Positions 13,001 through 61,094 of a stretch of DNA of 64,000 bases are shown here, in pieces. The notes beneath the pieces are model-generated. The model was not told the DNA's origin and made no database searches. It was given only the letters and a program-made list of their open reading frames with translations. Both the position numbers and the translations under genes were made by a program. Source of the stretch: a virus (Duplodnaviria > Caudoviricetes); IMG/VR virus record IMGVR_UViG_3300030090_003629, positions 1,666 to 65,665 of that record. One strand, 5' to 3'. Each line of letters starts with the position of its first letter. Within the stretch, counting starts at the first letter, position 1.

Positions 13001-16000
13001 TAAATTCTTTTCTTCTGGCAATAAATTAGAAAAAGATTCTTTTATTTGATCAATAGATTTATAAGATATAAAATCTGTTACTTCAACTCTATTTATTACA
13101 ACCTTGTCTCCTTTTTCTGTTACTTCTATTATTTTGTCTGTAAAGATATTATCTTTACCGTACTTTTCTTTCAGTGATATAAAATTATCTATTAAAGTTT
13201 CTCTATTTTCTATTTTAGATAAAAAACTTATATTATTTTTTAAATCATTTATTATAACTCTATTTATTATAGCGCTGTATTTATCTGGATATAACATTTT
13301 TAACTCAGCATAAGATTCATTATTAATTATGCCTTGCATATATGGTGTAAACCTTATATCTGTAACAAAAGCTCTTTCTAATACAGTACTGAATAACTTT
13401 ACAGCATGCTCTACAATACTGTTAAATCTACTTTCTCCTAGTTGGTAAGGTAATGATAGACCTCCACTTTTTCTATCATTTATAGTAATAAAATTTGTTT
13501 GTAGTTTCTTAATTTTTTGTGTTATTTGTCTTAACTCAAATGGATTTTTTTCTATCTTTTGATGTACAGTAAAAGCTTTTCCAAAAGGATTTACAACATC
13601 CTCATTAAATTTGTCTAATGCATATAACATTATTATAGCATCAAATTCAGCATTTCTGTTTTTTCCTTTAGTTAATAAGTCATTTATATTTATATTAATA
13701 CCTTCTCCCTTTAGTCTAGAAACTATTGTTTCCCACCTTTTTTGATCTATTCCTTTTCTTTTTTTACCAGTAATTTTTTGTTTATAAAAGTAAGTTAATT
13801 TTTTAACACCTTGACTTTCAAAAAATTCAGCCAACTCATTTACATTATTAACTTGATCTTCTAAAAACATTTCTTGTATGTCGCTATCTTTAGAAATATA
13901 GTTTTTACTTCTCTTGCTTTTAAAATCAATATACTCTTGTACTATTGGGCTGTTAAATAGTAATGTTAAGTCATTTAAAGAATAACCTAACCTTCTTAAC
14001 ATAATATAAGAAAATATCGTTTGTTTATTTAATCCTAGTTTACTTGCATATTGATGTTTTGCATTATCTAAAACTATATTTAATAGTTGTGCAACCCCAT
14101 ACCAATTACCCACTCCGTTTTCTAATTCAGGATCATCAAAAAACTTATCGTGTGTAACTGCTTCAGACTCTCCTTTTAACGTTATTTTAAAAGGTAATTT
14201 TTCTTCATTATTAGAAAATATATTAAATGTTCTTTGTAATGCAGCAACTATACCTACCAATGATTTTGCAGGAACATTATCGTTAAACATTTCACTATCT
14301 CCTAAGGGGTGCAATTGTGATTCTTCTTTTTGTTTTTTATTTTTATAAAGGCCTTTAGATTTAGCCTGTTCTATTGCATTATCCGAATCAGATACAAAGT
14401 CAATATTAGCTGTAATTTCATTTGTTCTTTTTTTATTACTAACTAATTTTACATACAAATCAAAAAACCTGTTAGATTTTTTTCTCCAAGATTTACCCCT
14501 TTCATTTACCTCCTTTTCTGTATACTTAAAATTCATATGAACAGAATCTCCATCTAAATCTGCCCCCCAAAACTTACTTACTTTTGCTGGTATAGTTATA
14601 TTAGAAGTTGGTGTATCATCTATTTGAGCATGAAAATCTTTTACTACAAACACAGAACTAGTAACCTTTCCGTGTGAAGGTACTCTTGTACCAATAAATA
14701 AATCTCCTACCTCTACACCTTGATCTTTTAAATATCCAGGAACTATAGCTTCAGAAGCAACTATACTTTCATCTTCTGCAAACAATCCTTTTTCGTATGA
14801 TTTTAAATTCATGCCTAAACTTGATGACTGATATGCTATAGATCCTTTTGTATACATTTTAGTTCCTCTATGTGTTATCCTACCTCTAGCTATAGAGTTA
14901 TAAGAAGCATTTGCAAATGGGTATCTAGGATCTAATGTTTCAAAAACAGAATCAAATAATACCCCATATATATCTGCACTAACAGAACTAGCAAAAGAAT
15001 CTCTTTCTTTGTATACTGTTTCTCTAGTAGCGGTATTATTCATAATTAAACCAGCTTTTCTATTTCTGCTTTCGTTATTAGCTTCCATAACATCTTTTCT
15101 TAAACCATACATTTCTTTAAGTATAAGTTTTTCTTCTTCTGTTATTATGTTTGTAGCTAAATTGTAAAATAATTGTGATGGAAAAAATCTTTCATCTGTT
15201 TGCTTATCTAACTCTAATTGTATACCAAAACCTTCTCCTGACAAGCCTCTATATCCAGTATCGTCTTTATACAACAGGTCTTGTCTTTTCATAATATTAT
15301 CTATATTGTCTAAATTTTTAATATCATGTATATCTTCTTTTGTTCTTATGCCATCTAAAAATAATTTAGCAGCAGACTCTGACGCAGCTATTACTAGATT
15401 ACCTGGTGTTTTAGAAATATCTTCTACTTGTTCTTGACGTTTTCTTAATACCTCTCCTATATTTTTTAAGTATTCACTTTTAGCTTCTAACTCTCGTGTT
15501 AATGTATGTACAGCAAATTTTAAATATGTTGTCTTCCCTTTTAACTTACCTTCTGTTTCTGTATAATGATAAACAAACTTAAATACATTACCTACTTTTT
15601 GTGACTCTCCATATTTTTCTCTAATAATTTTTGCTTGCTCAGGCAATACATAACCCATAGCATCATTTTCTATATAGTTATTATCAGTTTCTTCTGTAGT
15701 AATCTTATTATTATCATCAATAAAATAATCTTTTATTATAATAGGCTCTATCATAGTGTTTCTATCAAACACAACATGACTTGCTATTGCACCTGCAGCT
15801 CTTTTTATATAATCTATTTCATCTTTAGATTGCCTGTGATCATGTACAAATAGTTGTTGCGCCATAAACTTATTAGCAATATGTGATGTTAAATATGCTT
15901 CTATAGCTTTATCTATATCTTTTGTTTCTAATATGTCTTCATTGTTTATGTATAAATCCTTATTAATTCTCATGTGTTGTTTAAAATCAACAACTAATTT

Positions 16001-19000
16001 CTTAATGTTTTTTATTCTATTGTTTTCAATTACATAAGGAAATATATCTGATCCTTTTTGATACTTTTTGCCATATGCTGGATTTCTTTCAATTCTTGAC
16101 AATAATTCTTTTCTTGTTTTACTATTGTGAGCCATCATACTTTCTATATAATATCTTCTGCTTTTGTCAGAAAATACAGCTATAGGCTGATCGTATATTA
16201 TTGTTTCTTCTTTATTTTTTATTCCTTGATTGTATTGCGATAAAAATTGTAAAAAATCACCTGCAACTAATTCTTTAGGAGTTACATAGTTTAGCTTAGA
16301 AGCTCTACCTTCATATTTTACAGCTTCAGCTTTAGCAATTAACTCACGCATCATACCAGAGTGTATAGTAAACCTAAATGGGTTTTGACTAACTTTACCA
16401 TTGCTTCCAGTTAGCACCCCTCTTGCTTTTTTACTATACAATAAATAAGAATATATATTATTATCTGGATGCATTATATCATCTTTAGATATATCTATTT
16501 CTTCATTAATTATATTAGCTATATTTTTTGCTCTATTATGTAAGCCGTTTTCTTTATTAAATATACTGACACCGTCACCCATAACATTATCTACCATAGA
16601 CAAATAATTAATAGCTCTAGATGCCACAAGACCTTCTGTTAATATTACTTTTAACTCGCCTTGTTTTCCAAACATTAATCCATAAGCTTTGTATTTTCCT
16701 GTTTGTACAGTAAATTTACCTTCTTTATCAATACCCATTAAAGATTGATATTTTAAATTAGGTTTGCCATTTTTAAATCTTTTGTGTTCAAATAATAAAT
16801 TCCATAAATACTGTCTTTTACCATCAAATAATATTTCAGTATTTAATAAAGCTCTTTTGTCTATTAGCTTACCTTTTGCATTATCATCTAAAATTATATC
16901 TAAATATTTTGTTGCTGCTATATATTTTTGCTTAGAAGTAGGTTTTTCATTTTTAAATAAATTATCATATACTTCAGCTAACTTTTTCCCTTTTTCAGTG
17001 TTGTTATTTAAATCTTTAAGTATGCTACGTATAACGCCTTGCTCTAATGTTTTACTAATAGTTCTGTATTTTTTAAAAGACTTAACAGCTCTACGTCTTG
17101 ATTTGTCATATTTTATTTCTAATGCCTGATGTGATAAAACCTCTATTGTAATACCTTCAATGGGTCCTTTAATTTCCATTAACTTAGCGTTAGTTAAAAT
17201 TTTATCATTATTATATAAATTATCTAACAAACCTAACATAGCTTCTATTTCTCTACTTCCAGACTTTCTTACATTTGGTATAAAATCATATGGATCATAC
17301 ATAGTATTTTTAGACATGCTATATAAATCGTATAATAATTTTTTTCTATCTATTACTTTATCAGGATTTTGATTGTTATAAACCTCTACTATTTTTTTTA
17401 TAAAATTAGAAGTTGTTGTAGGTAAGGCTATTTGTTTTACATCATCATCAAAATTTCTTTCTGCACCAGGCTGACTTTCATTACCATCTTGACTTACATC
17501 TTCTTCTTTACCAATACTTTTTCCTATATTAGACAATATACGATCTAGTTTATCGTCTGCTAATTTTAAATCATTTGGTCTTGTTTTTTGTCTAACTACA
17601 GCTTCAACTTGCGATTTTATAAAATCTACATCTTTTATTGTTAATTCACTATCCTTTGCTATTTGTTCAACTACTCTATCTGCAATTTGTTCTGATGTTA
17701 ATCCACGCCCCATAAAATCACCTATAGTTTTAGATAAAGCAGAATACGTAGATCTTTTTCTAATTGCTTTTTTCTTAGCTTTATTTATCGGTCCATATGC
17801 AGAATTTTGCATTACAGGTACTGTTCTGTTTCCTGAATTAAAGTCTAAAAGTATATGTTTTATTGCAGCTTCTAAATCTAAACTTTGTATATTGTCAACT
17901 GATAAATCTAATAATCTTTTTGCGTCTTCATTAGATGTTAGCTTTTTTACTTTCTTATAAAACTCTATTAAATCTTTTTCTAATCTTTTTTGTGTTGCGG
18001 TTCCTTTTATAACAGCATCAACATTATCATAAGAATAAAATTCTAAAGTTCTTGAAAATGTTTCTTCTAACAAATGCCTTTGTCTGTCTACTCTAACTTC
18101 TTTAATTCCTTGTGCTTTTAATTGTAGTCTAAGCTCATTAAACAATTCCATTGTTCTTGTGCCGTCATTGTTTCTTTCTGCTATAGCAATGTTTTCTGAA
18201 ATACTTACAATATCACCAGTATAATCTGCTTTATTATTTAATGCGTTTCTATATATAGCTCCAATAGTAATATTTTGCCCATTAACTCTCATTAATGTTA
18301 ACTCAGGATATTCTTCTTGTGTCTTTTTGTATAATAAAGATTTAGGTAAAAGCTTTTTTATTCTTTTCATTAATGGAGTTTTTTCCATTAACGAATAATA
18401 TATATGTCCTGCTTCGTGTATAATATCAGATTGCCTAACTTCGTTTTCGTTTATCATAAGCGTAGCGCCTATTGCTAATGATGTAGCTTCTTGTCCATAA
18501 TCATCATACAATGCTTTTTGTACTACGTAACCCTTAGCTCCAGGAAAGTTTTTGTTTATAATAGACCTAGTTAATGCGGAAGCAGCTAAACCTGAATCTG
18601 TATATACTTCTAAATTACGATTTAATAATATTGGATCATTTTCTTTTATAGTAGAAAATGTGCTTTTTATGAATTTATTAAAATTATCTTTTGTTTGCTT
18701 TACTGCGCCTACTACCTTATCTATACTTCTAGTTTCTTTTTTCTTTGCTTTTTTTGTTGTGGTTTCTTCTATTGTAAAATCTTGATATTGTAATTGTCCA
18801 ATAACCTTATTATCTACTATTACTTCAATTTTACTTTCATATAATGGTGCTCCTTTTTTATATTGAAAATATAATTTACCATTAACTTCTACCACATCAG
18901 CTTGCCCTGCTACTGGTTCTACTAAATTTAATTTAACATTTTGTGGTGTTTTAGTTAAAGCTTCTGCTCCAAAAGGTTTAGATGTAAAAAATTTGATAAC

Positions 19001-21937
19001 TTTACCTGTAGCTGTTTTTAATATGTAACTAGTAGTGCTAGCTCTACCTTCTTTATCTATTACCTTAGATATACTTGCAGCCTGTAATTTTATTCCTTTA
19101 TCTTTTAAAGATTTTTCTGTTTCTTTATACTCCTTAGTTTTAGGAGCTACGACTGATTGGTCTTTTTTTTTTACGTCTGCTTTTGCTCTTTTAGGGTCTA
19201 CTCTTTGTTTTTGATCAGAAGTTAGTCTATCAAACATTTTAGGATTCATAACTGTTTTGTAGTCTCCAACTTTTCCTACAGTATATGTCATACCAGAAGG
19301 TATAACCTTATCTGTTTTAGCGTCTCTTACTGTTGCTTGCGTGTACCCTTTAATAGCTTCTTCATTAGATATATTATCTCTCTTTTGTATCTTCTCATCT
19401 ATTACTGTTGCTGGGGTCCATCTATCTGCTGCTTCTGACCACTGTGTCCACTCTACTGTTCCGTCTAATCTTGTTACAGCTCTAAATCTAGCGTGCACTG
19501 ACCCGTCTTCCTCATAAACAGTAAATTCTTCTGTTTTAACAGGAACTTGCTTGTCTTTATATCTAGGTTTTTCTTTTTCTTTTGTTTCAGTCCTCTCTTC
19601 TTTTTTTACTGCCTTATCTACATCTCCTCTATTAATAACTTTATTAATTCCTGTACCTATTATTTTACCAGCCGCAGCAGCAGTTATTTTTCCAGCCTCT
19701 AATGCTTTTAATAAATAATCTTTTGCTGTAGATGTAATTTTAGTTTTATCGTAATTTTTTATTTTTTTAATTGCCTCCTTAACTTCAACTGACTGTATCT
19801 TTTTTTTTCCTTTACCAAACAACCCCTTAACCCCTTGTACAACTTTAGATATAACTGACGGTTCTTGCTTTTTAGCATCGTCAGCTTTTTTTGCCTCTTT
19901 TTGCGAAAACTCTGTAACCTCATCTTTTGTTAGTCCTTGTACTTTAAACCTAGCATCTCTTTTTCCTGTTGACTTAGCTATTGGCGCTTTGTCTACTCTT
20001 AATGTATATATATCTTCTATTTCTCTTTCTAATACATTCATATCATCTTGCAATGTTTCCATAATAGATAGATGATTTTGTTCTGCTTTTTCTAATGCTT
20101 TCTTTTGTTTTTCTGGATTTTTTATATTTTCTTTTATATTAGCCCGATCTATTTCATAAGATTTCTTTTGTAACTCTTGTTGTTGTAAATTTCTAGATTT
20201 TCTAGTTTCTCTAAAAAATGCTTGCCTTGCTCCTTCTTCTGTTAATATACTATTTACAGTATGTTTTTCATAATTCTTTTCTGCTTGTTCTACAGCGGCT
20301 ATATATTCATCTGCTGTTTGTTGTGACATTTTTTTGTCCTTTACCATGTTGTTTATGTACTCTATGACAACAGAACCATCACCTCTATAGTTCCAAACGT
20401 TTAATGCTATTATGTTGTCTTGTACTTGTGCTTCTGCTGCATAGTACTGGTCAGGATCTTTTGCAGACTCAATTATTCTAGCATTTTCATTTATGGCTTC
20501 TTGATGCTCATTTAATGCAGAGATTCTTTCTGCTGCTGCATCAAAATATCCTCTTGCGCCTCCCATCGCTCCACCTAAACCTACAGAAGACCAAAATATA
20601 TCTCTTATTTCAGGACGTATATTTCCATAACTATCTTTTACCCAATCAGTCATTCCTAAATATTCTTCTCCTTTTGCTTGTTGTATATTTTTGTATTTAT
20701 TCCACTCTTGGTGAGTTTCTTGTATACCTTCTGTCAAACCTTCTACTGTAGCATATGCTCCTGCAGCAGGTAAAAGAGGTAATCTTTTTCGTACAGCATA
20801 GGACACTAAACCTCTTACCGAATCTTTATAATTTATTTTTTGTAATGGATTTAATAATAGTCTTTTAGCCATAGATTTACCTACACCTCCAAATAATAAA
20901 CCATATGATATTGCATCTGCACCAACCCACCATGCATTTGTTTTCATTACATCTGTAGCATGTGACGCTGCTTCATCTGGTGTAAATAATAAATTACCAT
21001 CTTCATCAGTATCTCTTAGCATTTCATTATACGCTTCTCCAGCTAAATATGCTCCTTCAGCCATGTTTGCTCCCAAACCACCACCTGCAAATGAGCCTAT
21101 ATTACGCATAAATTTTGTTTGTGCTAAACCTTTCTTGCCAGCATCAAAAGCTAACTTACCTAATATACCAGATCCCTGTATACCTTTGTTACCCATACCT
21201 ATACCTTTACCCATAGTACCAATAGGGACTCCCATAATTTTTTTAGCCTTATCTGCTTTTGATAAAGCTTTTGCTGACATCATTCCAAATCTTCCTAATA
21301 AAGCACCTCCTATTCTTGCTCCTGCAGTATATGGTATAGCAAATGACAATGCATAAGGAACTAATCTAGCAATTTTAGAGTTCCAAAATTCTGCACGGAA
21401 CATATCACCAAAAGTTACGTCTTTCATTTCATCAGACAATACTAACAAATTTTCATTTTGTTTTTGTGCTCCAATTTTTTTAAAATAATCACCTAGACGT
21501 GTAGTAGGTTCTGGATCTCCTGGTCTAGCCCACGCATTTATAAAATCTAAAGTTTCTCCAGTACCATACAATAAATCTCCAAAACCAGCTTTTATACTTC
21601 TTTCTAATTTTTCTCCTCCAGAACCAATCATAGATAATGGATCTAGTATTTCTTGATTTGGTGCAGAACCATATCGTAATCTATCTAGACCACTATATTC
21701 ATCTGCCGATATATCACTAGCAGCCATTGCTCTAGAATATTTGTTTAGCAAAGGATCATCTATATTTGCCTGTGCTACATTTTGAAACATTGCATCCATA
21801 GACATGGGCGTGTCCATTTCACTGTCATATGATTGTTGTATATCTTGTTGAGGTGTATTTATATTTACACTTTCGCTTTCAGCTAAATTGCCTAATATTT
21901 GATTTAACCCTGATGTGTAATCATTACTTTCTGCCAT
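10094..21937 (-). CDS. giant virion-packaged DNA-dependent RNA polymerase polyprotein (crAss-like)
   Basis: 3947 aa; RVPSHG followed by the catalytic GADLDGD (about 14546-14569); HEAGH zincin-like motif (18404-18418); lies after the cargo genes as in Crassvirales. Confidence 0.85.
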   Translation of the reverse strand: MAESNDYTSGLNQILGNLAESESVNINTPQQDIQQSYDSEMDTPMSMDAMFQNVAQANIDDPLLNKYSRAMAASDISADEYSGLDRLRYGSAPNQEILDPLSMIGSGGEKLERSIKAGFGDLLYGTGETLDFINAWARPGDPEPTTRLGDYFKKIGAQKQNENLLVLSDEMKDVTFGDMFRAEFWNSKIARLVPYALSFAIPYTAGARIGGALLGRFGMMSAKALSKADKAKKIMGVPIGTMGKGIGMGNKGIQGSGILGKLAFDAGKKGLAQTKFMRNIGSFAGGGLGANMAEGAYLAGEAYNEMLRDTDEDGNLLFTPDEAASHATDVMKTNAWWVGADAISYGLLFGGVGKSMAKRLLLNPLQKINYKDSVRGLVSYAVRKRLPLLPAAGAYATVEGLTEGIQETHQEWNKYKNIQQAKGEEYLGMTDWVKDSYGNIRPEIRDIFWSSVGLGGAMGGARGYFDAAAERISALNEHQEAINENARIIESAKDPDQYYAAEAQVQDNIIALNVWNYRGDGSVVIEYINNMVKDKKMSQQTADEYIAAVEQAEKNYEKHTVNSILTEEGARQAFFRETRKSRNLQQQELQKKSYEIDRANIKENIKNPEKQKKALEKAEQNHLSIMETLQDDMNVLEREIEDIYTLRVDKAPIAKSTGKRDARFKVQGLTKDEVTEFSQKEAKKADDAKKQEPSVISKVVQGVKGLFGKGKKKIQSVEVKEAIKKIKNYDKTKITSTAKDYLLKALEAGKITAAAAGKIIGTGINKVINRGDVDKAVKKEERTETKEKEKPRYKDKQVPVKTEEFTVYEEDGSVHARFRAVTRLDGTVEWTQWSEAADRWTPATVIDEKIQKRDNISNEEAIKGYTQATVRDAKTDKVIPSGMTYTVGKVGDYKTVMNPKMFDRLTSDQKQRVDPKRAKADVKKKDQSVVAPKTKEYKETEKSLKDKGIKLQAASISKVIDKEGRASTTSYILKTATGKVIKFFTSKPFGAEALTKTPQNVKLNLVEPVAGQADVVEVNGKLYFQYKKGAPLYESKIEVIVDNKVIGQLQYQDFTIEETTTKKAKKKETRSIDKVVGAVKQTKDNFNKFIKSTFSTIKENDPILLNRNLEVYTDSGLAASALTRSIINKNFPGAKGYVVQKALYDDYGQEATSLAIGATLMINENEVRQSDIIHEAGHIYYSLMEKTPLMKRIKKLLPKSLLYKKTQEEYPELTLMRVNGQNITIGAIYRNALNNKADYTGDIVSISENIAIAERNNDGTRTMELFNELRLQLKAQGIKEVRVDRQRHLLEETFSRTLEFYSYDNVDAVIKGTATQKRLEKDLIEFYKKVKKLTSNEDAKRLLDLSVDNIQSLDLEAAIKHILLDFNSGNRTVPVMQNSAYGPINKAKKKAIRKRSTYSALSKTIGDFMGRGLTSEQIADRVVEQIAKDSELTIKDVDFIKSQVEAVVRQKTRPNDLKLADDKLDRILSNIGKSIGKEEDVSQDGNESQPGAERNFDDDVKQIALPTTTSNFIKKIVEVYNNQNPDKVIDRKKLLYDLYSMSKNTMYDPYDFIPNVRKSGSREIEAMLGLLDNLYNNDKILTNAKLMEIKGPIEGITIEVLSHQALEIKYDKSRRRAVKSFKKYRTISKTLEQGVIRSILKDLNNNTEKGKKLAEVYDNLFKNEKPTSKQKYIAATKYLDIILDDNAKGKLIDKRALLNTEILFDGKRQYLWNLLFEHKRFKNGKPNLKYQSLMGIDKEGKFTVQTGKYKAYGLMFGKQGELKVILTEGLVASRAINYLSMVDNVMGDGVSIFNKENGLHNRAKNIANIINEEIDISKDDIMHPDNNIYSYLLYSKKARGVLTGSNGKVSQNPFRFTIHSGMMRELIAKAEAVKYEGRASKLNYVTPKELVAGDFLQFLSQYNQGIKNKEETIIYDQPIAVFSDKSRRYYIESMMAHNSKTRKELLSRIERNPAYGKKYQKGSDIFPYVIENNRIKNIKKLVVDFKQHMRINKDLYINNEDILETKDIDKAIEAYLTSHIANKFMAQQLFVHDHRQSKDEIDYIKRAAGAIASHVVFDRNTMIEPIIIKDYFIDDNNKITTEETDNNYIENDAMGYVLPEQAKIIREKYGESQKVGNVFKFVYHYTETEGKLKGKTTYLKFAVHTLTRELEAKSEYLKNIGEVLRKRQEQVEDISKTPGNLVIAASESAAKLFLDGIRTKEDIHDIKNLDNIDNIMKRQDLLYKDDTGYRGLSGEGFGIQLELDKQTDERFFPSQLFYNLATNIITEEEKLILKEMYGLRKDVMEANNESRNRKAGLIMNNTATRETVYKERDSFASSVSADIYGVLFDSVFETLDPRYPFANASYNSIARGRITHRGTKMYTKGSIAYQSSSLGMNLKSYEKGLFAEDESIVASEAIVPGYLKDQGVEVGDLFIGTRVPSHGKVTSSVFVVKDFHAQIDDTPTSNITIPAKVSKFWGADLDGDSVHMNFKYTEKEVNERGKSWRKKSNRFFDLYVKLVSNKKRTNEITANIDFVSDSDNAIEQAKSKGLYKNKKQKEESQLHPLGDSEMFNDNVPAKSLVGIVAALQRTFNIFSNNEEKLPFKITLKGESEAVTHDKFFDDPELENGVGNWYGVAQLLNIVLDNAKHQYASKLGLNKQTIFSYIMLRRLGYSLNDLTLLFNSPIVQEYIDFKSKRSKNYISKDSDIQEMFLEDQVNNVNELAEFFESQGVKKLTYFYKQKITGKKRKGIDQKRWETIVSRLKGEGINININDLLTKGKNRNAEFDAIIMLYALDKFNEDVVNPFGKAFTVHQKIEKNPFELRQITQKIKKLQTNFITINDRKSGGLSLPYQLGESRFNSIVEHAVKLFSTVLERAFVTDIRFTPYMQGIINNESYAELKMLYPDKYSAIINRVIINDLKNNISFLSKIENRETLIDNFISLKEKYGKDNIFTDKIIEVTEKGDKVVINRVEVTDFISYKSIDQIKESFSNLLPEEKNLIFELEAEFNGFGFTGGAGGAASFIPFFDNEYINKINDEINTIITNNQTKEPEFKYDDVNDMSNLDNLDSIELDDAIIDELNKNLTTDKKIDKASKQNNTFIDPTKKAKKVISSSTTYNNDYISGDNNILSFSEYLADKGIDIQKIKESKIAEQLYNKYIKYREHYKTVQEFESSLEKKPLSKYNLEDLRKRAFKLRSMDNSATKNISYIVEKEIGKRLFEIQTKKLKADGKRQGYKYKVPGLDGVEQEDMSGLESWLTSNNISSKRPELQLLINEIQFEYRNYLRAFKRYKDRLEKANRSLVRSKNKGLSVLERVRQGFDTNARYKYIYGNIATFENGNIRLLTEEELADKNLTKEERAYYTEYKNVAQELLNTDTYIIPGMQMGTLEKMSRNSLFGLYDNTIDTYDIERVKVYGLDKSGNRVLKTLYEWKYDVYKGRTGKLTLESGRQIYELDKLRRKAKELKAKGINEDGSKILLSDMEYDALINNGAMIKKLMGDNNITDVDRELIEEYERRRGIKAKNISYDINSSLLEFIRGSLFMNGENVDLQKSKGIENPFTGMSKVSILIDSVIAFNKGLDNKNAANYLTRWWKEGFIEGRQQESFLGKTGDKVIDSFVRLTSLRLLGFNMTVGIGNVLAGKYQELRKKGGAQFIKGETRYFKNLYESRDILKRFRIVEYSFDEFIHLSESKGAFGKLEKWSYIFMDATENYIQGAAFLGELTEEEFNNPDLITEERVMQINHKISTLHGEGYTALDASLLSMYSYGRALLQFKKWFVTLLKDRFSAEDIDRFGKVNIGSYRATGEFVRDLFRSYIAGNTSKKELKAIWDNSNEARKAEIAAHLRGMGIGITLLSLIAIMEDDEDSDPNMIRTLKKFSNDVFVTTDYDRFFNYTLVPASYSTIKNATEMIGQSVRGDKIKRSGPYGEKGDSKAAKTLLYDLAPYSSVRRSIARDVYNMEGDKKETSSLIR

Positions 21938-50237: not shown

Positions 50238-51178
50238 TAGAAACGTCCTCCTTTAGTAAAATTACGTCTTTTTACTGGGCGAGCAAAAGTTTCTAGCCCT
50301 AATATTTTTCTTTGCTCTTCTGTAATGCCTCCTCCCTTTCTTCTTTTATTACCGAAATTTAAATTCATTAAGGTTTTAGTAATTTCTGGGCTTATCATTC
50401 CAGCACCAAGAACACCACCACCTAACATTTTTGGGGGTTCTGGGTTAATAACATTTTTAGCTTGCATGCTAGCGATTAGCATATCAGCTATATTACTATA
50501 CATTCCCCCTACATTTTGATTCATAAGATCAGGAAGACCCAAATTAGATCTCATACTCCTGTTTGCTTCAATAAGCTCTTCTTTGTTACTGTGTGTAACG
50601 GGAACCCTAAAAGAAAGATTTGCATTTTGTTGATCAATTTGTTCTTGAATTGGGTTTGTTCCTGTAGCTTCAGGATAATTTGAATAAAATGGAGACGAAA
50701 ACTGCCTCATATCCATTTCACCCCCCATATTAAACTTCTCACTCATAGAGCCAATCTTCTCTGACTGTTTCTTATGCATTTGTGATGCTTTACTTAACTC
50801 ACCAGCAATTTTTTGTAAACTACTTTTTAATGTACCACCATGCTCAAACGAAGATACGTTCTTAGATATATACGGATTTAAAGCTATTAAAGGGTTAGCA
50901 TCCATGTTGCCCTCTGTTGGTTCTGATCCTCCCCCAGTACCTCCTCCATCTCTTTCACCTGACATTTGATTAATAGCATTTGCAGAAATCGTATTTAATG
51001 TATTGAATAAATTAGCAAGGTTACGATCAGGACTCATACCCATAGGTAAAGGCGCAGGTTTTCTAAAAGCTGACGGATTGGGTATTGACGGATTGTTTAT
51101 TGCTGGATTAATAGCAGGCATATCTGGTTCGTATATAGCTAGATTAGTTGGTCCTGGTGGTAAATTTGTAGCTGCCAT
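50237..51178 (-). CDS. low-complexity hypothetical protein, first gene of the late block
   Basis: Pro/Asn/Met/Gly-rich with FEHGG, FNMGG and FTKGG motifs. Confidence 0.6.
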   Translation of the reverse strand: MAATNLPPGPTNLAIYEPDMPAINPAINNPSIPNPSAFRKPAPLPMGMSPDRNLANLFNTLNTISANAINQMSGERDGGGTGGGSEPTEGNMDANPLIALNPYISKNVSSFEHGGTLKSSLQKIAGELSKASQMHKKQSEKIGSMSEKFNMGGEMDMRQFSSPFYSNYPEATGTNPIQEQIDQQNANLSFRVPVTHSNKEELIEANRSMRSNLGLPDLMNQNVGGMYSNIADMLIASMQAKNVINPEPPKMLGGGVLGAGMISPEITKTLMNLNFGNKRRKGGGITEEQRKILGLETFARPVKRRNFTKGGRF

Positions 51179-51201
51179 AGTATAAATATTTTATTTATTT
51201 A

Positions 51202-51209
51202 CAAAGATA
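51202..51209 (-). promoter_or_regulatory. Bacteroidetes-type -7 promoter element (TATCTTTG) heading the late block
   Basis: Intergenic, about 24 nt upstream of the ATG at 51178. Confidence 0.65.
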
Positions 51210-51304
51210 TATAAAAAATTTTATTTTTTTGTGAGGGAGTGATGCTATATGCTTAAATCCCCCCTGGTTTCTCAAAACTTTGGATACCGTACCCCATTTT
51301 ACCT

Positions 51305-51317
51305 TTTACTATTCTTA
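51305..51317 (+). promoter_or_regulatory. repeated early motif TTTACTATTHTTA (copy 1 of 6; others at 51524, 51989, 52680, 53335, 59196)
   Basis: Same 13-mer 30-41 nt upstream of six plus-strand ATGs. Confidence 0.6.
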
Positions 51318-51345
51318 CTCAGTATTAATCAATATATATATTATC

Positions 51346-51510
51346 ATGACAGATTTATTAGTTTGGTGCTTAATAGTTGCACTATCATTTGCAAAACTAT
51401 TCCTTTATGTTCTACTTATTGTAGCGGTATGGGTATGGATTAAGAAACACAGTCCTAAAACTGCAGAACAAATCAAGAACTATGTTCCATTTAAAAAGAA
51501 GAGTAAGTAA
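51346..51510 (+). CDS. small membrane protein (54 aa)
   Basis: Start reassigned to ATG 51346 (MTDLLVWCLIVAL...); long hydrophobic stretch and basic tail. Confidence 0.65.
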   Translation: MTDLLVWCLIVALSFAKLFLYVLLIVAVWVWIKKHSPKTAEQIKNYVPFKKKSK

Positions 51511-51526
51511 TTACTCTCTTTTTTTT
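51499..51526 (+). terminator. intrinsic terminator
   Basis: AGAGTAA-GTAA-TTACTCT followed by a T-run. Confidence 0.7.
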
Positions 51527-51560
51527 ACTATTATTACTAACAACTAATACATAATATACT

Positions 51561-51671
51561 ATGAAAGATATAATTTTATTTCCAATCTATCTTATTGTTG
51601 GTCTTGGAGTATTTATTTTTGTTAAAGAAATAAGACAAGAGATAATAATGAGAGTTAAAGAAGAGCTATAA
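51561..51671 (+). CDS. 36-aa single-TM micropeptide (not in ORF track)
   Basis: MKDIILFPIYLIVGLGVFIFVKEIRQEIIMRVKEEL*; has its own upstream motif and terminator. Confidence 0.65.
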   Translation: MKDIILFPIYLIVGLGVFIFVKEIRQEIIMRVKEEL

Positions 51672-51684
51672 TGCTCTTTTTTTT
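51661..51684 (+). terminator. intrinsic terminator
   Basis: AAGAGC-TATAAT-GCTCTT followed by a T-run. Confidence 0.7.
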
Positions 51685-51858
51685 AGTTATTTAATAAAAA
51701 AGTATAATTATTGCGTATTGAAGTGTGAGTAGTATACTCTATTAAAACCCTTATAATCATCATATAATAGCAATTATAAGCATTACTATTACTCTAAGTA
51801 GTTGATAATCAATCAGTTATTGTTTATTTATTAGATATTATATAAGTATAATATGTCT

Positions 51859-51984
51859 TTAATATATTTAGCTGATTAACTATCGTTATCTCTAATAGAT
51901 GGCGAAGTTATACAATTTATTTTACATTGTCAAGTCTTTCTAGCATTTTTTTATATAAATTATTATCATTAATATATTTAGCTG
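51859..51984. repeat. 16-bp direct repeat TTAATATATTTAGCTG
   Basis: Copies at 51859-51874 and 51969-51984. Confidence 0.75.
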
Positions 51985-52029
51985 TTTATTTACTATTATT
52001 ATTAAGTATTAACCAAATTTATATAAGAT

Positions 52030-52317
52030 ATGATTTTACATGAAATTAATTGCTCTTGCGGTTGTACAAGAGCTGAAAAACTAGACGAAAAGTGGGGTAA
52101 TTGCGTAAAGTGTGGAGCACCACACGACATACAGTTTAGCGATTACACTACACACGATGTTAAACTTACACCATTAAATGTAATAGAACAACGTGCTAAA
52201 GAACAAGCAGTAATAGATATGTGGAGAAATGATTTAATAAACTGGGATGATAAACCATTTATTAACTGGTCTACCTGCTTTCAAGTAGAAGATGAACAAT
52301 TTGGAGTGCCATTTTAG
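52030..52317 (+). CDS. Zn-ribbon hypothetical protein
   Basis: CSCGC...CVKCG; ends EDEQFGVPF. Confidence 0.65.
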   Translation: MILHEINCSCGCTRAEKLDEKWGNCVKCGAPHDIQFSDYTTHDVKLTPLNVIEQRAKEQAVIDMWRNDLINWDDKPFINWSTCFQVEDEQFGVPF

Positions 52318-52331
52318 GCATTCCATTTTTT
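52303..52331 (+). terminator. intrinsic terminator
   Basis: GGAGTGCC-ATTTTA-GGCATTCC followed by ATTTTTT. Confidence 0.65.
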
Positions 52332-52342
52332 AACCTAAACAT

Positions 52343-52649
52343 AAATAAGAAAGGTCAGAACAAAGTGGTTTCAGTGTAGGTTCTGCAGGACCGATTGTGT
52401 AATACATCAAAGAAGTTCCACACCTTTCTTATTTTTAACCTAAATATTAAAAAAAGGTGTTGAATGGTGTAAATCCAGACGTGGTAATACCAGCTTAATT
52501 GAGAATAAAACACTTGCGTTACCAACTCTCAGCCTTTTTTTTTATATTTGCAAACTTGTAAAATATAGAGGTGCCATCATATCTGTCGTAATACTTGCTT
52601 TTCTAAACTATATTTTATGCATAAGAGGTTTGGCACAGCCTCTTTTTTT
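52343..52649 (+). ncRNA. array of three stem-closed structured elements plus a terminal hairpin (candidate ncRNAs)
   Basis: 13-bp IR AAATAAGAAAGGT/ACCTTTCTTATTT (52343-52434); AAAAAAAGG/CCTTTTTTT (52449-52543); GTAAAATATAG/CTATATTTTAT (52558-52618); each contains GTAATAC. Confidence 0.55.
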
Positions 52650-52653
52650 ACTT

Positions 52654-52677
52654 CTCTCGCTCGCTTACGCTCGCTCG
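52654..52677. other. GCTC-repeat element CTCTCGCTCGCTTACGCTCGCTCG
   Basis: GC-rich CGCTCGCT direct repeat within AT-rich intergenic DNA. Confidence 0.6.
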
Positions 52678-52719
52678 TATTTACTATTTTTATTAATATT
52701 AATCATAAAATTTTATAAA

Positions 52720-53022
52720 ATGACAAAAAAATCAAAAACTACTACGAAAAAAGTTACTAAAAAAACTACAAAACCTGCACTAAACTTTGCTTCAGGTGTA
52801 TTTATTAAAGAAACTGAGTATTCTATTCTTATGGACTTTAATGCTAAAGCATTTTGTCAATGGATGAAAGACAATATAAATGAAAAAGGTTATGTAAGAA
52901 CTATAGTTAGAGCCAACAAAGAAGGTTCTAGATTTTCACATAACATGTCTTTAAATGATTATAGTCCTAAAGCTGTTGCAGAAAAAGCTGTTCAAGAAAC
53001 TGCTGAGGACTTACCATTCTAA
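52720..53022 (+). CDS. small putative ssDNA-binding protein
   Basis: Start reassigned to ATG 52720; N.KGYV motif and acidic EDLPF tail. Confidence 0.55.
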   Translation: MTKKSKTTTKKVTKKTTKPALNFASGVFIKETEYSILMDFNAKAFCQWMKDNINEKGYVRTIVRANKEGSRFSHNMSLNDYSPKAVAEKAVQETAEDLPF

Positions 53023-53261
53023 TGGGTATATTAGGTATATCATTCTTCGCTGCCGTTGGTTATTATATCATTGTATATAAAGCCATCGGTAGACGTAGAC
53101 TAGTTAAAACACAAACATTCTGGGACATACTATTTACTTTGTTGTTACCATTATTGTTTATTGGAACATTCAGCGGTTTGGCTACTGCTGTTATTGCAGG
53201 CGTGTTGTTTTCATGCTTTACAGCTATTACACCATCGCCTACAGAAGACGACTACAAATAA
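53022..53261 (+). CDS. small membrane protein
   Basis: Two to three hydrophobic helices. Confidence 0.65.
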   Translation: MGILGISFFAAVGYYIIVYKAIGRRRLVKTQTFWDILFTLLLPLLFIGTFSGLATAVIAGVLFSCFTAITPSPTEDDYK

Positions 53262-53264
53262 AAT

Positions 53265-53337
53265 AGGTTGAAAGAGTATCTTAACGAATATCCGTGATAA
53301 CACGGTACGGTAAACTAGAGCTCTTTCTTCCTTTTTT
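53265..53337 (+). ncRNA. stem-closed structured element / terminator
   Basis: GAAAGAG/CTCTTTC stem enclosing CCGTG-ATAA-CACGG, followed by a T-run. Confidence 0.5.
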
Positions 53338-53372
53338 ACTATTATTATTAATATAAATCAATACTTTTGCTT

Positions 53373-53771
53373 ATGAAAGAAAATAATTATGAGATAAGCG
53401 CACAATATCTCAAAGACTTAAAAAAATTACTAAAAGATAAAAACAGTAATATCAAACCTTATCACATTGCGCACGCATCATTTAGAAAAAATAATTCAGA
53501 TTTAATTATTAAAAAAGTTAATAAAATAGACTTTATTATTACATATCTAGACGGTACTAAACAAAAATTTCCAACATATAATGAACTTATGAGGATGACA
53601 AAAAATCTAAATGATCTATATCCTAAAAATAGAAGAGATTATATAGATAGGTATTTTAAGGTTATAAATGCTTTTCATAAGCACAGAGCTAAACTTAAAA
53701 AGAAAACAAATGCTATTGCTAACAGATTGTTACCCAATCAAGTAAAAGCATTAGTATCAAAAATATCATGA
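53373..53771 (+). CDS. basic hypothetical protein
   Basis: ATG at 53373, just after TACTTTTG. Confidence 0.6.
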   Translation: MKENNYEISAQYLKDLKKLLKDKNSNIKPYHIAHASFRKNNSDLIIKKVNKIDFIITYLDGTKQKFPTYNELMRMTKNLNDLYPKNRRDYIDRYFKVINAFHKHRAKLKKKTNAIANRLLPNQVKALVSKIS

Positions 53772-54047
53772 TGACGGTAATAACCATGGGCCATCATCAT
53801 AGGGTCAGGTCGGGCAACTATTTGTAGAATTAATAAAATTCATAATTAAAGTGTTCTAATTGCAGATAAACTTTAAGCATAGCAAGTTGACGTAAAGTGT
53901 TCCTGGCTCTATTTATATGTATGCTCCCTTCGTTGAAAAATACCACAGGTGATCATACATTTATAGAAAGGAGGTTAGTAAACATAACAAATAATAATTC
54001 AGCGGTTATACTTTGTGTGTATTTACAATTCCTCCTTTCTTTTTTTT
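53768..54047 (+). ncRNA. second array of four consecutive structured elements (candidate ncRNAs)
   Basis: ATGATGA/TCATCAT; ATAGGGTCAGG/CCTGGCTCTAT with G-U pairs; ATGTATG/CATACAT; AGAAAGGAGG/CCTCCTTTCT plus T-run. Confidence 0.55.
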
Positions 54048-54066
54048 CAATTTAAATTATATATAA

Positions 54067-54603
54067 ATGACAACATTATTAAAAAAATTAAAACATTATT
54101 TTTCAGGAGAACATGAAAAAAATGAAAAAATACTAATAACATTATTTAACTTTAAGAAATCAAACAGTCATTATACACCAAATTACTGGTGTTTAAACAA
54201 TATGTTAGCTCTTAACTTTAAAAAATGCATGACGTGGATTATATTTAATATCTATAATCCATTTGATAAAGATACGTGGAAATTATCATTTGATATAAAA
54301 TTTACTCCTGATAGTTATTTTAGTAGAGTAGAAAATAAAAGAACTAAAGAAGAAAATAAATATCTTGATAATAAAGGTTTAATTGTAAGAGAAACTATGG
54401 TAGTAAGAGAGATTTCATCAAAAATACAATTATTATTTATTGAGTTTAATTTTATGTTCAATTTTGACTATTTATTAAAATATGAATTATCAAATTACAT
54501 GAAAGATGACGATTTTATAATAAAATATTATAGGCCTAGTTCTTTAAATATAAATAACGATGATGATTGGATTAATTATAGACATAAAAACAATATACTT
54601 TAA
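54067..54603 (+). CDS. hypothetical protein
   Basis: 178-aa ORF, very AT-rich. Confidence 0.55.
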   Translation: MTTLLKKLKHYFSGEHEKNEKILITLFNFKKSNSHYTPNYWCLNNMLALNFKKCMTWIIFNIYNPFDKDTWKLSFDIKFTPDSYFSRVENKRTKEENKYLDNKGLIVRETMVVREISSKIQLLFIEFNFMFNFDYLLKYELSNYMKDDDFIIKYYRPSSLNINNDDDWINYRHKNNIL

Positions 54604-54605
54604 CT

Positions 54606-54824
54606 ATGACAAAAACAGAATTAATATTAAAAGTAGCAGAAAGATTAGCTCACAAAGAAAATATAGCTACATCATATAATGAAATAGCAGAAATTGTATT
54701 AACTTATAATAAAGGCTGGAAATATGAGGGAGAAGAAATGATTGAATTAATAGATGAAATATTATCTGTTAAAGAAAATATAATAAAAAGTTTAAATTCA
54801 ATACAAAAAGATTTATCATTTTAA
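54606..54824 (+). CDS. hypothetical protein
   Basis: 72-aa ORF in operon. Confidence 0.55.
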   Translation: MTKTELILKVAERLAHKENIATSYNEIAEIVLTYNKGWKYEGEEMIELIDEILSVKENIIKSLNSIQKDLSF

Positions 54825-55899: not shown

Positions 55900-56041
55900 A
55901 AAACTTATAGATCAAGTAGATGATGCATTTAATTACTTTAACGGATTTAGATTAGAAGAGTTAAAGTCTGACGATGTATACTATATAAATGCGTTAATGA
56001 AATATATAGAAGTTTTGGAATTAAAATTAAAAAACAAATGA
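55892..56041 (+). CDS. 49-aa hypothetical protein (not in ORF track)
   Basis: MARKLIDQVDDAFNYF...LKLKNK*; ATGA overlap with ung. Confidence 0.6.
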   Translation: MARKLIDQVDDAFNYFNGFRLEELKSDDVYYINALMKYIEVLELKLKNK

Positions 56042-56724
56042 AATCAAATCAAATGTATAATATGCTAGGAGACTGGTACAAAATATTAGGTATCATATTT
56101 CAATCAGAAAACTTTACAAAATTAACTGATCAACACAGAAATAACACAACTGAGTATACGGTTTATCCAGAAAAAGGTAGAACATTTAAGGCTTTCAAAA
56201 TGTGTCCTCTAAAATCTTTAAAAGTTGTTATACTTGGACAAGATCCATATCATGATGGTAGCGCAACAGGATTAGCATTTGCAAATAATGGTGGTAGAGT
56301 TAGTCCTAGTTTGCGCAACATAATACAAACAGTTAAAAATGATTTTGGAGATGTATATGTAAATCCAAATCTAGAAAGCTGGGCAAAACAAGGCGTATTA
56401 TTATTAAATACCGCTTTAACTGTAGAGAAAGGTAAGGCTGGATCACACATAGATTTGTGGATGCCATTTACGAGAGATCTTATAACTAGTCTTTCTATAT
56501 ATAAACCAGATCTAATATGGGTCTTATGGGGTAAGAAAGCACAAGACTATGAAAAGCATATTATGTATCCAAATGGACATACTATACTAAGAGCTCCTCA
56601 TCCTGCCGCAGAGGCGTACTCTGGTGGTAAGGCTGGCTTCTTTACATGTGGACATTTTAAGAAAATTAATGAAAAATTAGAAAAGCCTATAGAGTGGGGT
56701 GTAAAACAACAAATAACAATTTAA
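56038..56724 (+). CDS. ung: uracil-DNA glycosylase, family 1
   Basis: KVVILGQDPYH, ATGLAF, WAKQGVLLLNTALTV, LWG, HPAA. Confidence 0.93.
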   Translation: MKSNQMYNMLGDWYKILGIIFQSENFTKLTDQHRNNTTEYTVYPEKGRTFKAFKMCPLKSLKVVILGQDPYHDGSATGLAFANNGGRVSPSLRNIIQTVKNDFGDVYVNPNLESWAKQGVLLLNTALTVEKGKAGSHIDLWMPFTRDLITSLSIYKPDLIWVLWGKKAQDYEKHIMYPNGHTILRAPHPAAEAYSGGKAGFFTCGHFKKINEKLEKPIEWGVKQQITI

Positions 56725-59125: not shown

Positions 59126-59198
59126 AAAGATGGGGGTAGGTGCGTGTGGCCATGGAATGATAACTAACGCGTAGCGGTTATTACTACCCCCTTCTTTT
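59126..59198 (+). ncRNA. stem-closed structured element / terminator
   Basis: GGGGGTAG/CTACCCCC stem enclosing ATAAC..CGC-GTA-GCG-GTTAT. Confidence 0.5.
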
Positions 59199-60940: not shown

Positions 60941-61094
60941 AATAAGTAAAATAGGTAAGTACCCTATAATATCACTAATAATACTAGCGTCTATTATTTT
61001 TATACTAGGCCCTGTATTATTTTCTGTTATATTGGCTGGTATTATTGTATTGCCAATATATTTAGCTGTTCAATTATTGGGAGATAAAGATTAA
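60933..61094 (+). CDS. 53-aa membrane protein (not in ORF track)
   Basis: MIKISKIGKYPIISLIILASIIFILGPVLFSVILAGIIVLPIYLAVQLLGDKD*. Confidence 0.6.
   Translation: MIKISKIGKYPIISLIILASIIFILGPVLFSVILAGIIVLPIYLAVQLLGDKD

Follow-up and report, generated by a model that had tools for sequence, protein, structure and literature searches.

Two predicted structured-RNA modules in the early arm of a marine crAss-like phage recur in phages of other kinds

The stretch analyzed here, which we call the window, comprises 64,000 nucleotides (nt) of a marine crAss-like phage and corresponds to bases 1666-65665 of the 65.7-kb virus record IMGVR_UViG_3300030090_003629 (completeness rating 97%). We focused on positions 53768-54047, which lie between two small genes of the early arm and are predicted to fold into four closed stems, E1 to E4. 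Comparison with related sequences separates this stretch into two independent conserved RNA families (E2 and E4), a lineage-restricted hairpin (E1) and an insertion present in the window only (E3). On this evidence, E2 and E4 are predicted to be previously undescribed folded-RNA modules. Our best reading is that the gap between the two genes represents the 3′ untranslated end of one early cassette, which would carry autonomous, separately evolving structured-RNA modules. The four elements are as follows.

53768-53800, plus strand: E1, a hairpin; its 5′ arm runs over the TGA stop codon of the upstream gene (53769-53771)
53800-53911, plus strand: E2, a multibranch RNA of 112 nt with a closing helix (53800-53809/53902-53911), the 5-bp helix CAACT/AGTTG and three inner hairpins
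53912-53964 (about), plus strand: E3, a hairpin formed by a 48-nt insertion found only in the window
53965-54047, plus strand: E4, an irregular hairpin of 76 nt plus a T-run, with a closing helix (53965-53974/54031-54040) and a near-invariant interior that includes AGCGGTTATACTTTGTGTG

A preliminary description of this DNA had seen no credible open reading frame (ORF) in these 280 nt, and this was borne out: only three short ORFs are present (38, 52 and 33 amino acids, all with GTG starts), and none is kept in relatives, where they are broken by a 48-nt indel, by loss of the start codon or by indels and stops inside E4. The four closed stems that it had presented as one array are also present, as four closed domains with a minimum free energy (MFE) of -67.1 kcal/mol (z-score -2.85, matched by 1 of 200 shuffles), but they are not equivalent units of an array. 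When relatives were compared, structural conservation was found for E2 and E4, but E1 was kept in close relatives only and E3 was confined to the window. The sequence GGTAATAACC, which had been taken to link the first stem to an earlier group of hairpins (array 1), occurs at chance level: the window holds one exact copy and, with at most one mismatch, 7 matches where 3.71 ± 2.07 are expected, a count equaled or exceeded in 10 of 100 shuffles, and array 1 holds only the 9-mer GGTAATACC of this type.

The exact 19-nt core of E4, AGCGGTTATACTTTGTGTG, is present in 19 IMG/VR contigs, and the model built for E4 (R2) aligned 18 copies, 14 of them distinct. Pairing was retained in 96.0% of 324 cells compared with 89.7% in shuffled alignments, and two-sided changes were found at 7 of 24 pairs compared with 3.3 ± 0.8 after shuffling, a number reached by none of 500 shuffles; when the partners were slid by 1-3 columns, at most 61.6% of cells remained paired. 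The closing helix occurs in at least four forms, whereas nothing varies in the apical hairpin or on the 3′ side of the large internal loop. Loci L102 and L104 carry GAAGG/CCTTC in place of GGAGG/CCTCC, changed on both sides, together with 3′-side insertions of approximately 20 and 100 nt. The long irregular hairpin ending in a T-tract that had been described for this domain was thus recovered, and folded alone it is well below shuffled sequences (z-score -5.17, 0 of 200 shuffles). Two other explanations for E4 were rejected. A small peptide was ruled out by indels that are not multiples of three and by stops in all frames of other copies, and mimicry of a Shine-Dalgarno (SD) or anti-SD sequence by GGAGG/CCTCC was ruled out by its covariation to GAAGG/CCTTC in L102 and L104 and by the lack of SD use in the phage.

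For E2, three exact sub-patterns retrieved seven IMG/VR and five metagenome contigs, which were confirmed by model R1, and models R1 and R3 gave 11 aligned copies (8 distinct). Here, 98.9% of 280 cells were paired compared with 92.4% in shuffled alignments, two-sided changes affected 11 of 35 pairs compared with 4.8 ± 1.4 (0 of 500 shuffles reach 11), and sliding the 3′ partners left at most 46.8% paired. The closing helix is wholly different in L113 and L114, and the inner helices covary as well; in L002, L017 and L036, E2 is near-identical. The multibranched form reported earlier, with a G-U-holding closing helix and CAACT/AGTTG, agrees with these models, the closing helix being 10+2 bp. The proposed inner helix TATTTGTA/TGCAGATA is compatible with the alignment (96.4% paired) but shows no compensatory change and two broken cells; a rival 3-bp inner helix has compensatory changes in two of its three pairs. 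Therefore, we regard the TATTTGTA/TGCAGATA helix as less well supported than the E2 consensus fold. Two viral contigs that contain a 19-mer of E2 (L111 and L112) gave no R1 match and were set aside as chance matches.

Strand assignment depended on this comparison. Because the minus strand of 53768-54047 folds about equally well (z-score -3.28, 2 of 200 shuffles), fold energy cannot pick the strand, and the plus-strand RNA structure that had been argued from G-U pairs is left undecided by thermodynamics; covariation and the conserved G-U pairs of relatives do support it. At one pair of E4, U-G is found in 12 of the 14 distinct copies, and at another, C-G alternates with U-G (U-G in 3 of 14); on the opposite strand, such pairs would be A-C mismatches. 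E2 has G-U in four of its eight distinct copies at one pair and U-G in six of eight at another. Conserved G-U pairs in relatives therefore place the E2 and E4 folds on the plus strand, on comparative evidence only.

Both modules are conserved beyond what pairing demands. Between the window and L088, E2 is 95% identical (106/112) and E4 91% (69/76), compared with 76% of nucleotides (277/363) and 57% of amino acids (73/127) in the flanking upstream gene. Together with the alignments, this indicates selection on the interior sequence of E2 and E4 as well as on pairing. The sample comes from few lineages (8 distinct copies of E2, 14 of E4), and the shuffle controls ignore relatedness, which weighs against a functional reading.

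We then considered how far the modules extend. The flanking proteins, used as queries, found only two near-identical IMG/VR contigs. With the terminase as query, the best 80 of 224 candidates (83-100% identity) were kept; approximately 13 of these loci have 6.2 kb or more of sequence upstream of the terminase and so reach the E1-E4 site, and BLAST recovered parts of the 280 nt in four of them (L017, L023, L031 and L036). E4 is almost identical in all these relatives. In L023, it stands directly behind a different gene, in L031 another hairpin lies between, and both lack E2; E4 is also found without E2 in L099, L100, G004 and G013. G004 is a distant crAss-like phage of 83.7 kb whose terminase is 31% identical to that of the window, and G013 is a 28.7-kb phage without such a terminase. 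E2 is likewise carried outside the lineage by L113 and L114, loci of complete or nearly complete genomes of 36.2 kb (with direct terminal repeats) and 29.8 kb. These non-crAss E2 carriers, G011 and G012, have their portal, protease and terminase in PHROG families other than those of the window, and in both, E2 has no adjacent E4 and its clamp is longer. The 28.7-kb E4 phage is akin to the 29.8-kb E2 phage (portal 60%, terminase 80%), and G012 (29.8 kb) contains, besides E2, a diverged E4 elsewhere (35.9 bits) that keeps the core and lacks four bases of a GT-run. E2 is present once in the window, G011 and G012, and E4 is single-copy in all five records known to carry it, four of them at least 97% complete. 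At least four different genes precede E4 and at least five different genes follow it. These distributions show that E2 and E4 are independent of their neighbor genes and have been transferred between phage types. Since the modules recur in unrelated phages, they probably have a function of their own.

No protein common to all carriers of E2 or E4 was detected by blastp at 1e-5. A DUF5675 protein shared by the three E2 carriers was examined as a partner and looks unrelated: the window copy lies in the late-gene block on the minus strand, approximately 1.1 kb from a weakly holin-like ORF.

E4 has all the sequence features of an intrinsic terminator, as the preliminary description had suggested from its resemblance to one: a 10-bp closing helix and T8 at 54040-54047, located after a stop codon, with a T-rich tail 3′ of the module in all 18 aligned copies. 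A simple terminator scanner missed it because the loop exceeds 8 nt. All contexts of E4 are on the same strand as the genes around it; the stop codon lies 0-4 nt upstream in at least 6 of 17 and further away where other modules intervene, and the next ORF starts 9-31 nt 3′ of E4 in 13 of the 17 contexts measured. We infer that E4 is an intrinsic terminator and predict that transcripts end there. For E2, a T-run follows in L114, and none of its own is present in the crAss-like lineage.

The transcript concerned probably begins at a promoter-like motif upstream of the first gene.

53335-53351, plus strand: cassette motif TTTACTATTATTATTAA, 17 nt, promoter-like, with the ATG of the upstream gene 38 nt further on

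On the plus strand, this motif has six copies with 0-3 mismatches (51305, 51524, 51989, 52680, 53335 and 59196). Each lies behind a hairpin and T-run and 30-42 nt upstream of an ATG, and the early arm therefore takes the form of a chain of terminator-motif-gene cassettes. In total, 11 matches were found compared with 5.18 ± 2.12 expected, and none of 100 shuffles reached 11. The recurrent form is TTTACTATTATTA(T/C)TAA, and we consider the TTTACTATTATTA motif a candidate early promoter of the phage. The cassette beginning at 53335 has E1-E4 as its tail.

We provided a putative sequence of events on this basis, and we give E2 and E4 somewhat less than an even chance of being autonomous functional RNA modules, with E4 doubling as a terminator. 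Transcription would run from the cassette motif at 53335 through the 132-amino-acid gene and E1-E3 and would stop at the hairpin and U-tract of E4, making E4 an intrinsic terminator. The transcript, or a stable 3′ fragment of 80-280 nt left after decay or processing, would expose the conserved interiors of E2 and E4, which a factor common to the hosts of these different phages might recognize sequence-specifically. E2 and E4 would then serve as phage small RNAs (decoy, sponge or regulator) mounted on terminator-type clamps and moving between phages by recombination.

Cassette punctuation is an alternative that we consider unlikely. E4, and E2 where a T-run follows, would be terminators or processing and stabilizing hairpins between early genes, and their sequence would be conserved as homology patches for cassette swapping, similar to linkers or promoter-early stem-loops (PeSLs), rather than for a function of the interior RNA. 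The six terminator-plus-motif cassettes of the window suit this explanation, as do the flanking genes of relatives, which switch exactly at the borders of E2 and E4, and the other clamped modules found at the same site in relatives. In T4-type phages, PeSLs are composite terminator/promoter sequences and points of genetic exchange, according to the excerpted text of PMC4122927. However, E4 occurs once per genome (5/5 records), unlike the repeated PeSLs. Recent exchange would also have brought the closing helix along, yet this helix compensates while the interior is unchanged, and the inner helices of E2 and E4 covary too. Plain terminators, moreover, do not conserve a loop of approximately 45-90 nt across phages whose terminases are 30% identical or unrelated.

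The PeSL cassettes of T4-type phages (PMC2839356, PMC4122927) invite a closer comparison. There, as here, a stem-loop terminator and a promoter-like box stand between small variable early genes, and the elements mark gene-replacement borders; the flanks of E2 and E4 differ on both sides among relatives. The difference is that PeSLs are present as many near-identical simple copies per genome, whereas E2 and E4 are single-copy, have large covarying interiors and cross phage families. The PeSL-like element proper of the window is the six-copy TTTACTATTATTA motif with its hairpins; multiple copies are found for the motif, not for E2 or E4.

The short distance from the T-run of E4 to the downstream ORF (9-31 nt in 13 of 17 contexts) leaves little space for a separate promoter, which favors a regulated terminator acting in cis. 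The interior would bind a metabolite or protein and would stabilize or melt the closing helix, controlling read-through as a terminator-embedded aptamer or antitermination site. Conserved nucleotides within the terminator stem recall the HMP-PP (thiS) riboswitch, for which PMC6478431 places important conserved nucleotides inside an intrinsic terminator hairpin, as in E4. That riboswitch is small and sits in the 5′ leader of one gene class, whereas E2 and E4 lie behind stop codons, have unrelated neighbors and match no Rfam model. A single downstream gene class, which would be expected of a riboswitch, was not found, since at least five unrelated genes follow E4; the neighbor genes vary by context, so there is no associated class. 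Additionally, E4 is single-copy at varying positions, E2 in the crAss-like lineage lacks its own T-run, and no Rfam riboswitch model was matched. We therefore regard regulated termination as quite unlikely.

The same short spacer to the next ATG could instead indicate a signal at the DNA level, which we consider very unlikely. The invariant 3′ half of E4 would be an embedded promoter for the downstream gene, or the hairpins would act as single-stranded DNA signals (an N4-type hairpin promoter for an injected polymerase, an origin or a recombination site). The E4 core holds a sequence one base off the Bacteroidota -7 box, whose consensus is TAnnTTTG. This -7-like box is wrongly spaced in every copy, however, and there is no fixed-distance -33 element because indels of 0-12 nt lie between. 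Denatured DNA was used in an assay of the virion polymerase of phi14:2, a crAss-like phage of Cellulophaga, according to the excerpted text of bioRxiv 10.1101/2020.03.07.982082, which would accord with single-stranded signals. Against these proposals, the bases of the conserved U-G and G-U pairs would be mismatched on the template strand, an interior conserved over 90 nt, as in E2, is incompatible with a promoter, and E2 and E4 occur in 29-36-kb phages that lack the crAss-type terminase and have few genes in common with the window.

Their distribution also resembles that of phage ribozymes, being intergenic, on the gene strand and gene-independent, with covarying stems and invariant junction nucleotides in unrelated phages. 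E2 (or E4) might thus be a self-cleaving ribozyme, either new or strongly altered, by which the early transcript is cut. We judge this highly improbable: hammerhead, twister, pistol, hatchet and HDV-like models were unmatched at E <= 10 in the window region and at E <= 5 in five variant loci, and no known catalytic core motif was seen when the alignments were inspected by eye.

A bolder form of the functional-module reading is that E2 and E4 are two new host-directed functional RNA classes, for example decoys for a conserved host protein or defense system or new catalytic RNAs, traded as self-contained, terminator-clamped modules among unrelated marine phages of one host group. We hold this to be doubtful; phages would then exchange RNA modules in the way they exchange small accessory protein genes.

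Several results weigh against E2 and E4 being functional RNA modules in their own right. E4 was not found in the five other TerL-related records (5/5, of which only one is at least 90% complete), and it is therefore dispensable there. In the MFE folds obtained for the window and the relatives closest to it, the variable 5′ strand of E4 pairs with part of the conserved 3′ strand, which may therefore be unexposed. The 19-mer core of E4 gave five matches in 185,579 species genomes, where approximately four are expected by chance, and none has the E4 fold; an E4 27-mer, with up to three mismatches allowed, had no match among the 401 genomes sampled from the class to which a Flavobacterium metagenome-assembled genome belongs. 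The complement of the conserved single-stranded stretch of E4 is absent elsewhere in the genome of the phage. Among public sequencing runs, the stretch appears in two runs of one study only, as contigs, and no RNA run is listed. Finally, models R1, R2 and R3 had no match in bases 1-9000 of phi14:2 (NC_021806; L087), nor did blastn.

Despite this last result, the early RNAs of phi14:2 are, by analogy, the nearest experimental precedent for E2 and E4. In the excerpted text of bioRxiv 10.1101/2020.03.07.982082, intergenic RNAs at the g004-g005 and g005-g006 junctions outrank most genes in expression and persist through infection. Both cases concern a gene-free part of an early arm of small genes, on the early-gene strand, in a crAss-like phage with a marine host of Bacteroidota type. 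The gap is approximately 1.7 kb in phi14:2 compared with 295 nt here, where the RNAs are predicted from sequence. Because no match to R1, R2 or R3 was obtained, the analogy is one of position and kind only.

Another comparison concerns shape. The RNase III hairpins of T7 (R1.1 type) lie between early genes, become stable 3′ structures and are recognized by their shape. E4, as predicted here, is likewise an irregular hairpin of two helices and an internal loop, a likeness of shape only, and one that the preliminary description had noted for this stem; the loop sequence of the T7 sites is not known to be conserved across unrelated phages.

The early region of a phage is commonly taken to be a series of small proteins without known role. 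In the window, RNA structures rather than genes are the best-conserved pieces of this region, and they are shared by phages as unlike as a crAss-like phage of 65 kb, a distant crAss-like phage of 84 kb and others, of a different kind, of 29-36 kb. The analysis yields two model-ready RNA families (R2, and R1/R3) for mapping marine viromes and metatranscriptomes, and it offers a testable approach to the early non-coding RNAs of phi14:2, which are highly expressed and unexplained. Should a host factor be bound by the interiors, these would represent a new type of tool for phage takeover or counter-defense in Bacteroidota; if they bind none, the modules would still define how early cassettes are punctuated and shuffled.

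Database searches gave no existing name to either module. Rfam, proposed earlier as a check, matched no family: Rfam 15 had no match at gathering score in the 64-kb window, and at E <= 10 the interval 51000-54300 gave six weak matches, all below half the respective gathering score. Two of them overlap the region, both to eukaryotic or archaeal snoRNA models on the minus strand. In five loci with E2 or E4 variants (E <= 5), four weak matches were obtained, none on the modules. ARAGORN found no tRNA or tmRNA gene in the window, and blastn of 53300-54700 against 50,697 GenBank phage records gave no match. An E2 20-mer had no match in the 185,579 species genomes. A 23-nt E2 pattern had four there, all in one conserved coding gene of Clostridia and Parvimonas; we count these as a single coincidence copied by homology because, reading the frame, the gene portion is a DNA polymerase I motif. 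A 12-nt identity between E2 and what we take to be the anti-repeat of a well-known trans-activating CRISPR RNA (tracrRNA) was noted and dropped, as these nucleotides are in part base-paired within E2 and the tracrRNA and CRISPR-repeat models of Rfam have no match. The likeness of the 5′ strand of the window's E2 to signal recognition particle RNA is also a coincidence, since it lies inside the covarying clamp.

The window phage is assigned to the crAss-like group because its 2399-amino-acid ORF matches PF25731, the Crassvirus muzzle protein family (4e-135), and because its portal, large terminase and major capsid match PHROGs 6547, 6681 and 11589. Minus-strand genes extend to 51178 and plus-strand genes start at approximately 51250, the first ones of the plus arm being small. 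SD-like motifs precede 3 of 47 ORFs of at least 100 amino acids, compared with a 4.3% background; this scarcity and the phage type fit a host among the SD-less Bacteroidota. An ORF of 3947 amino acids (10094-21937, minus strand) has no Pfam match and, judged by size and position, is a candidate for the giant RNA-polymerase-type protein that crAss-like phages carry in the virion.

The genes on either side of the gap, which is 295 nt long, are as follows.

53373-53771, plus strand: upstream gene (listed as 53367-53771 from a TTG), 132 amino acids from the ATG, no Pfam family
54067-54603, plus strand: downstream gene, 178 amino acids, with a second ATG at 54114, no Pfam family

The upstream protein is 99% identical in L004 and L005 and 57% identical (73/127 amino acids) in L088, and the downstream protein is 92-94% identical in L002 and L003. 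Outside this region, four window proteins (3303-3689, 4052-6574, 7298-8398 and 56038-56724) share 56-78% identity with proteins of G004 (84 kb); one is weakly holin-like (below the Pfam cut-off), one is a uracil-DNA glycosylase and two have no family. The terminase, portal and capsid of the two phages share only 25-28% identity. This contrast points to gene exchange or a shared host.

E1 and E3 behave differently from the two families. Folded alone, E1 is not significant (z-score -1.87, 11 of 200 shuffles). Its stem is kept via two-sided changes in L002 (C·A to G-C) and L036 (G-C to A-T), its loop has a 9-nt indel among relatives, and another hairpin occupies the same place in L017, L116 and L118. 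E3 folded alone is moderately stable (z-score -2.44, 2 of 200 shuffles). It is missing in all aligned relatives, and BLAST over all gathered loci returned only the window's own genome; L116 has a different insert at the E3 junction. A mobile mini-element was ruled out for E3, since no second copy exists anywhere in the loci gathered.

Other early-arm terminators are likewise long clamped hairpins with sizeable interiors (53265-53334 and 59126-59196). The first follows a 79-amino-acid gene (z-score -3.43, 0 of 200 shuffles), and its interior CTTAACGAATA...CGGTACGGTAAACTAG reappears in L038 within a different clamp. The second is a third conserved clamped module, also present in L038 (~3243-3175, minus strand) with a compensatory clamp change between the two. 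Its apical hairpin has ATAACT...AGCGGTTAT in common with E4. The module was missed by R2 and may be a distant paralogue of E4. Where the window has E1-E4, relatives have other clamped modules. One such relative is L064 (~2050-1640, minus strand), where the homologue of the 178-amino-acid gene is kept and follows such modules; two of them lie directly behind the cassette motif without an ORF, which suggests that RNAs of this type can be free-standing genes.

Further upstream, array 1 (52326-52720) consists of several long hairpins, each with a terminal T-run, and has a repeated TTTTTAACCTAAA box; from 52443 onward, it aligns only with two near-identical relatives. Positions 51674-52030 form approximately 350 nt without an ORF of at least 40 amino acids, with 68-79% nucleotide identity in at least 15 terminase-related loci. 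A AATATATTTAGCTG box is repeated within them at 51861 and 51971 and is found again at 61055. One possibility for this interval is a conserved long non-coding RNA, another an origin.

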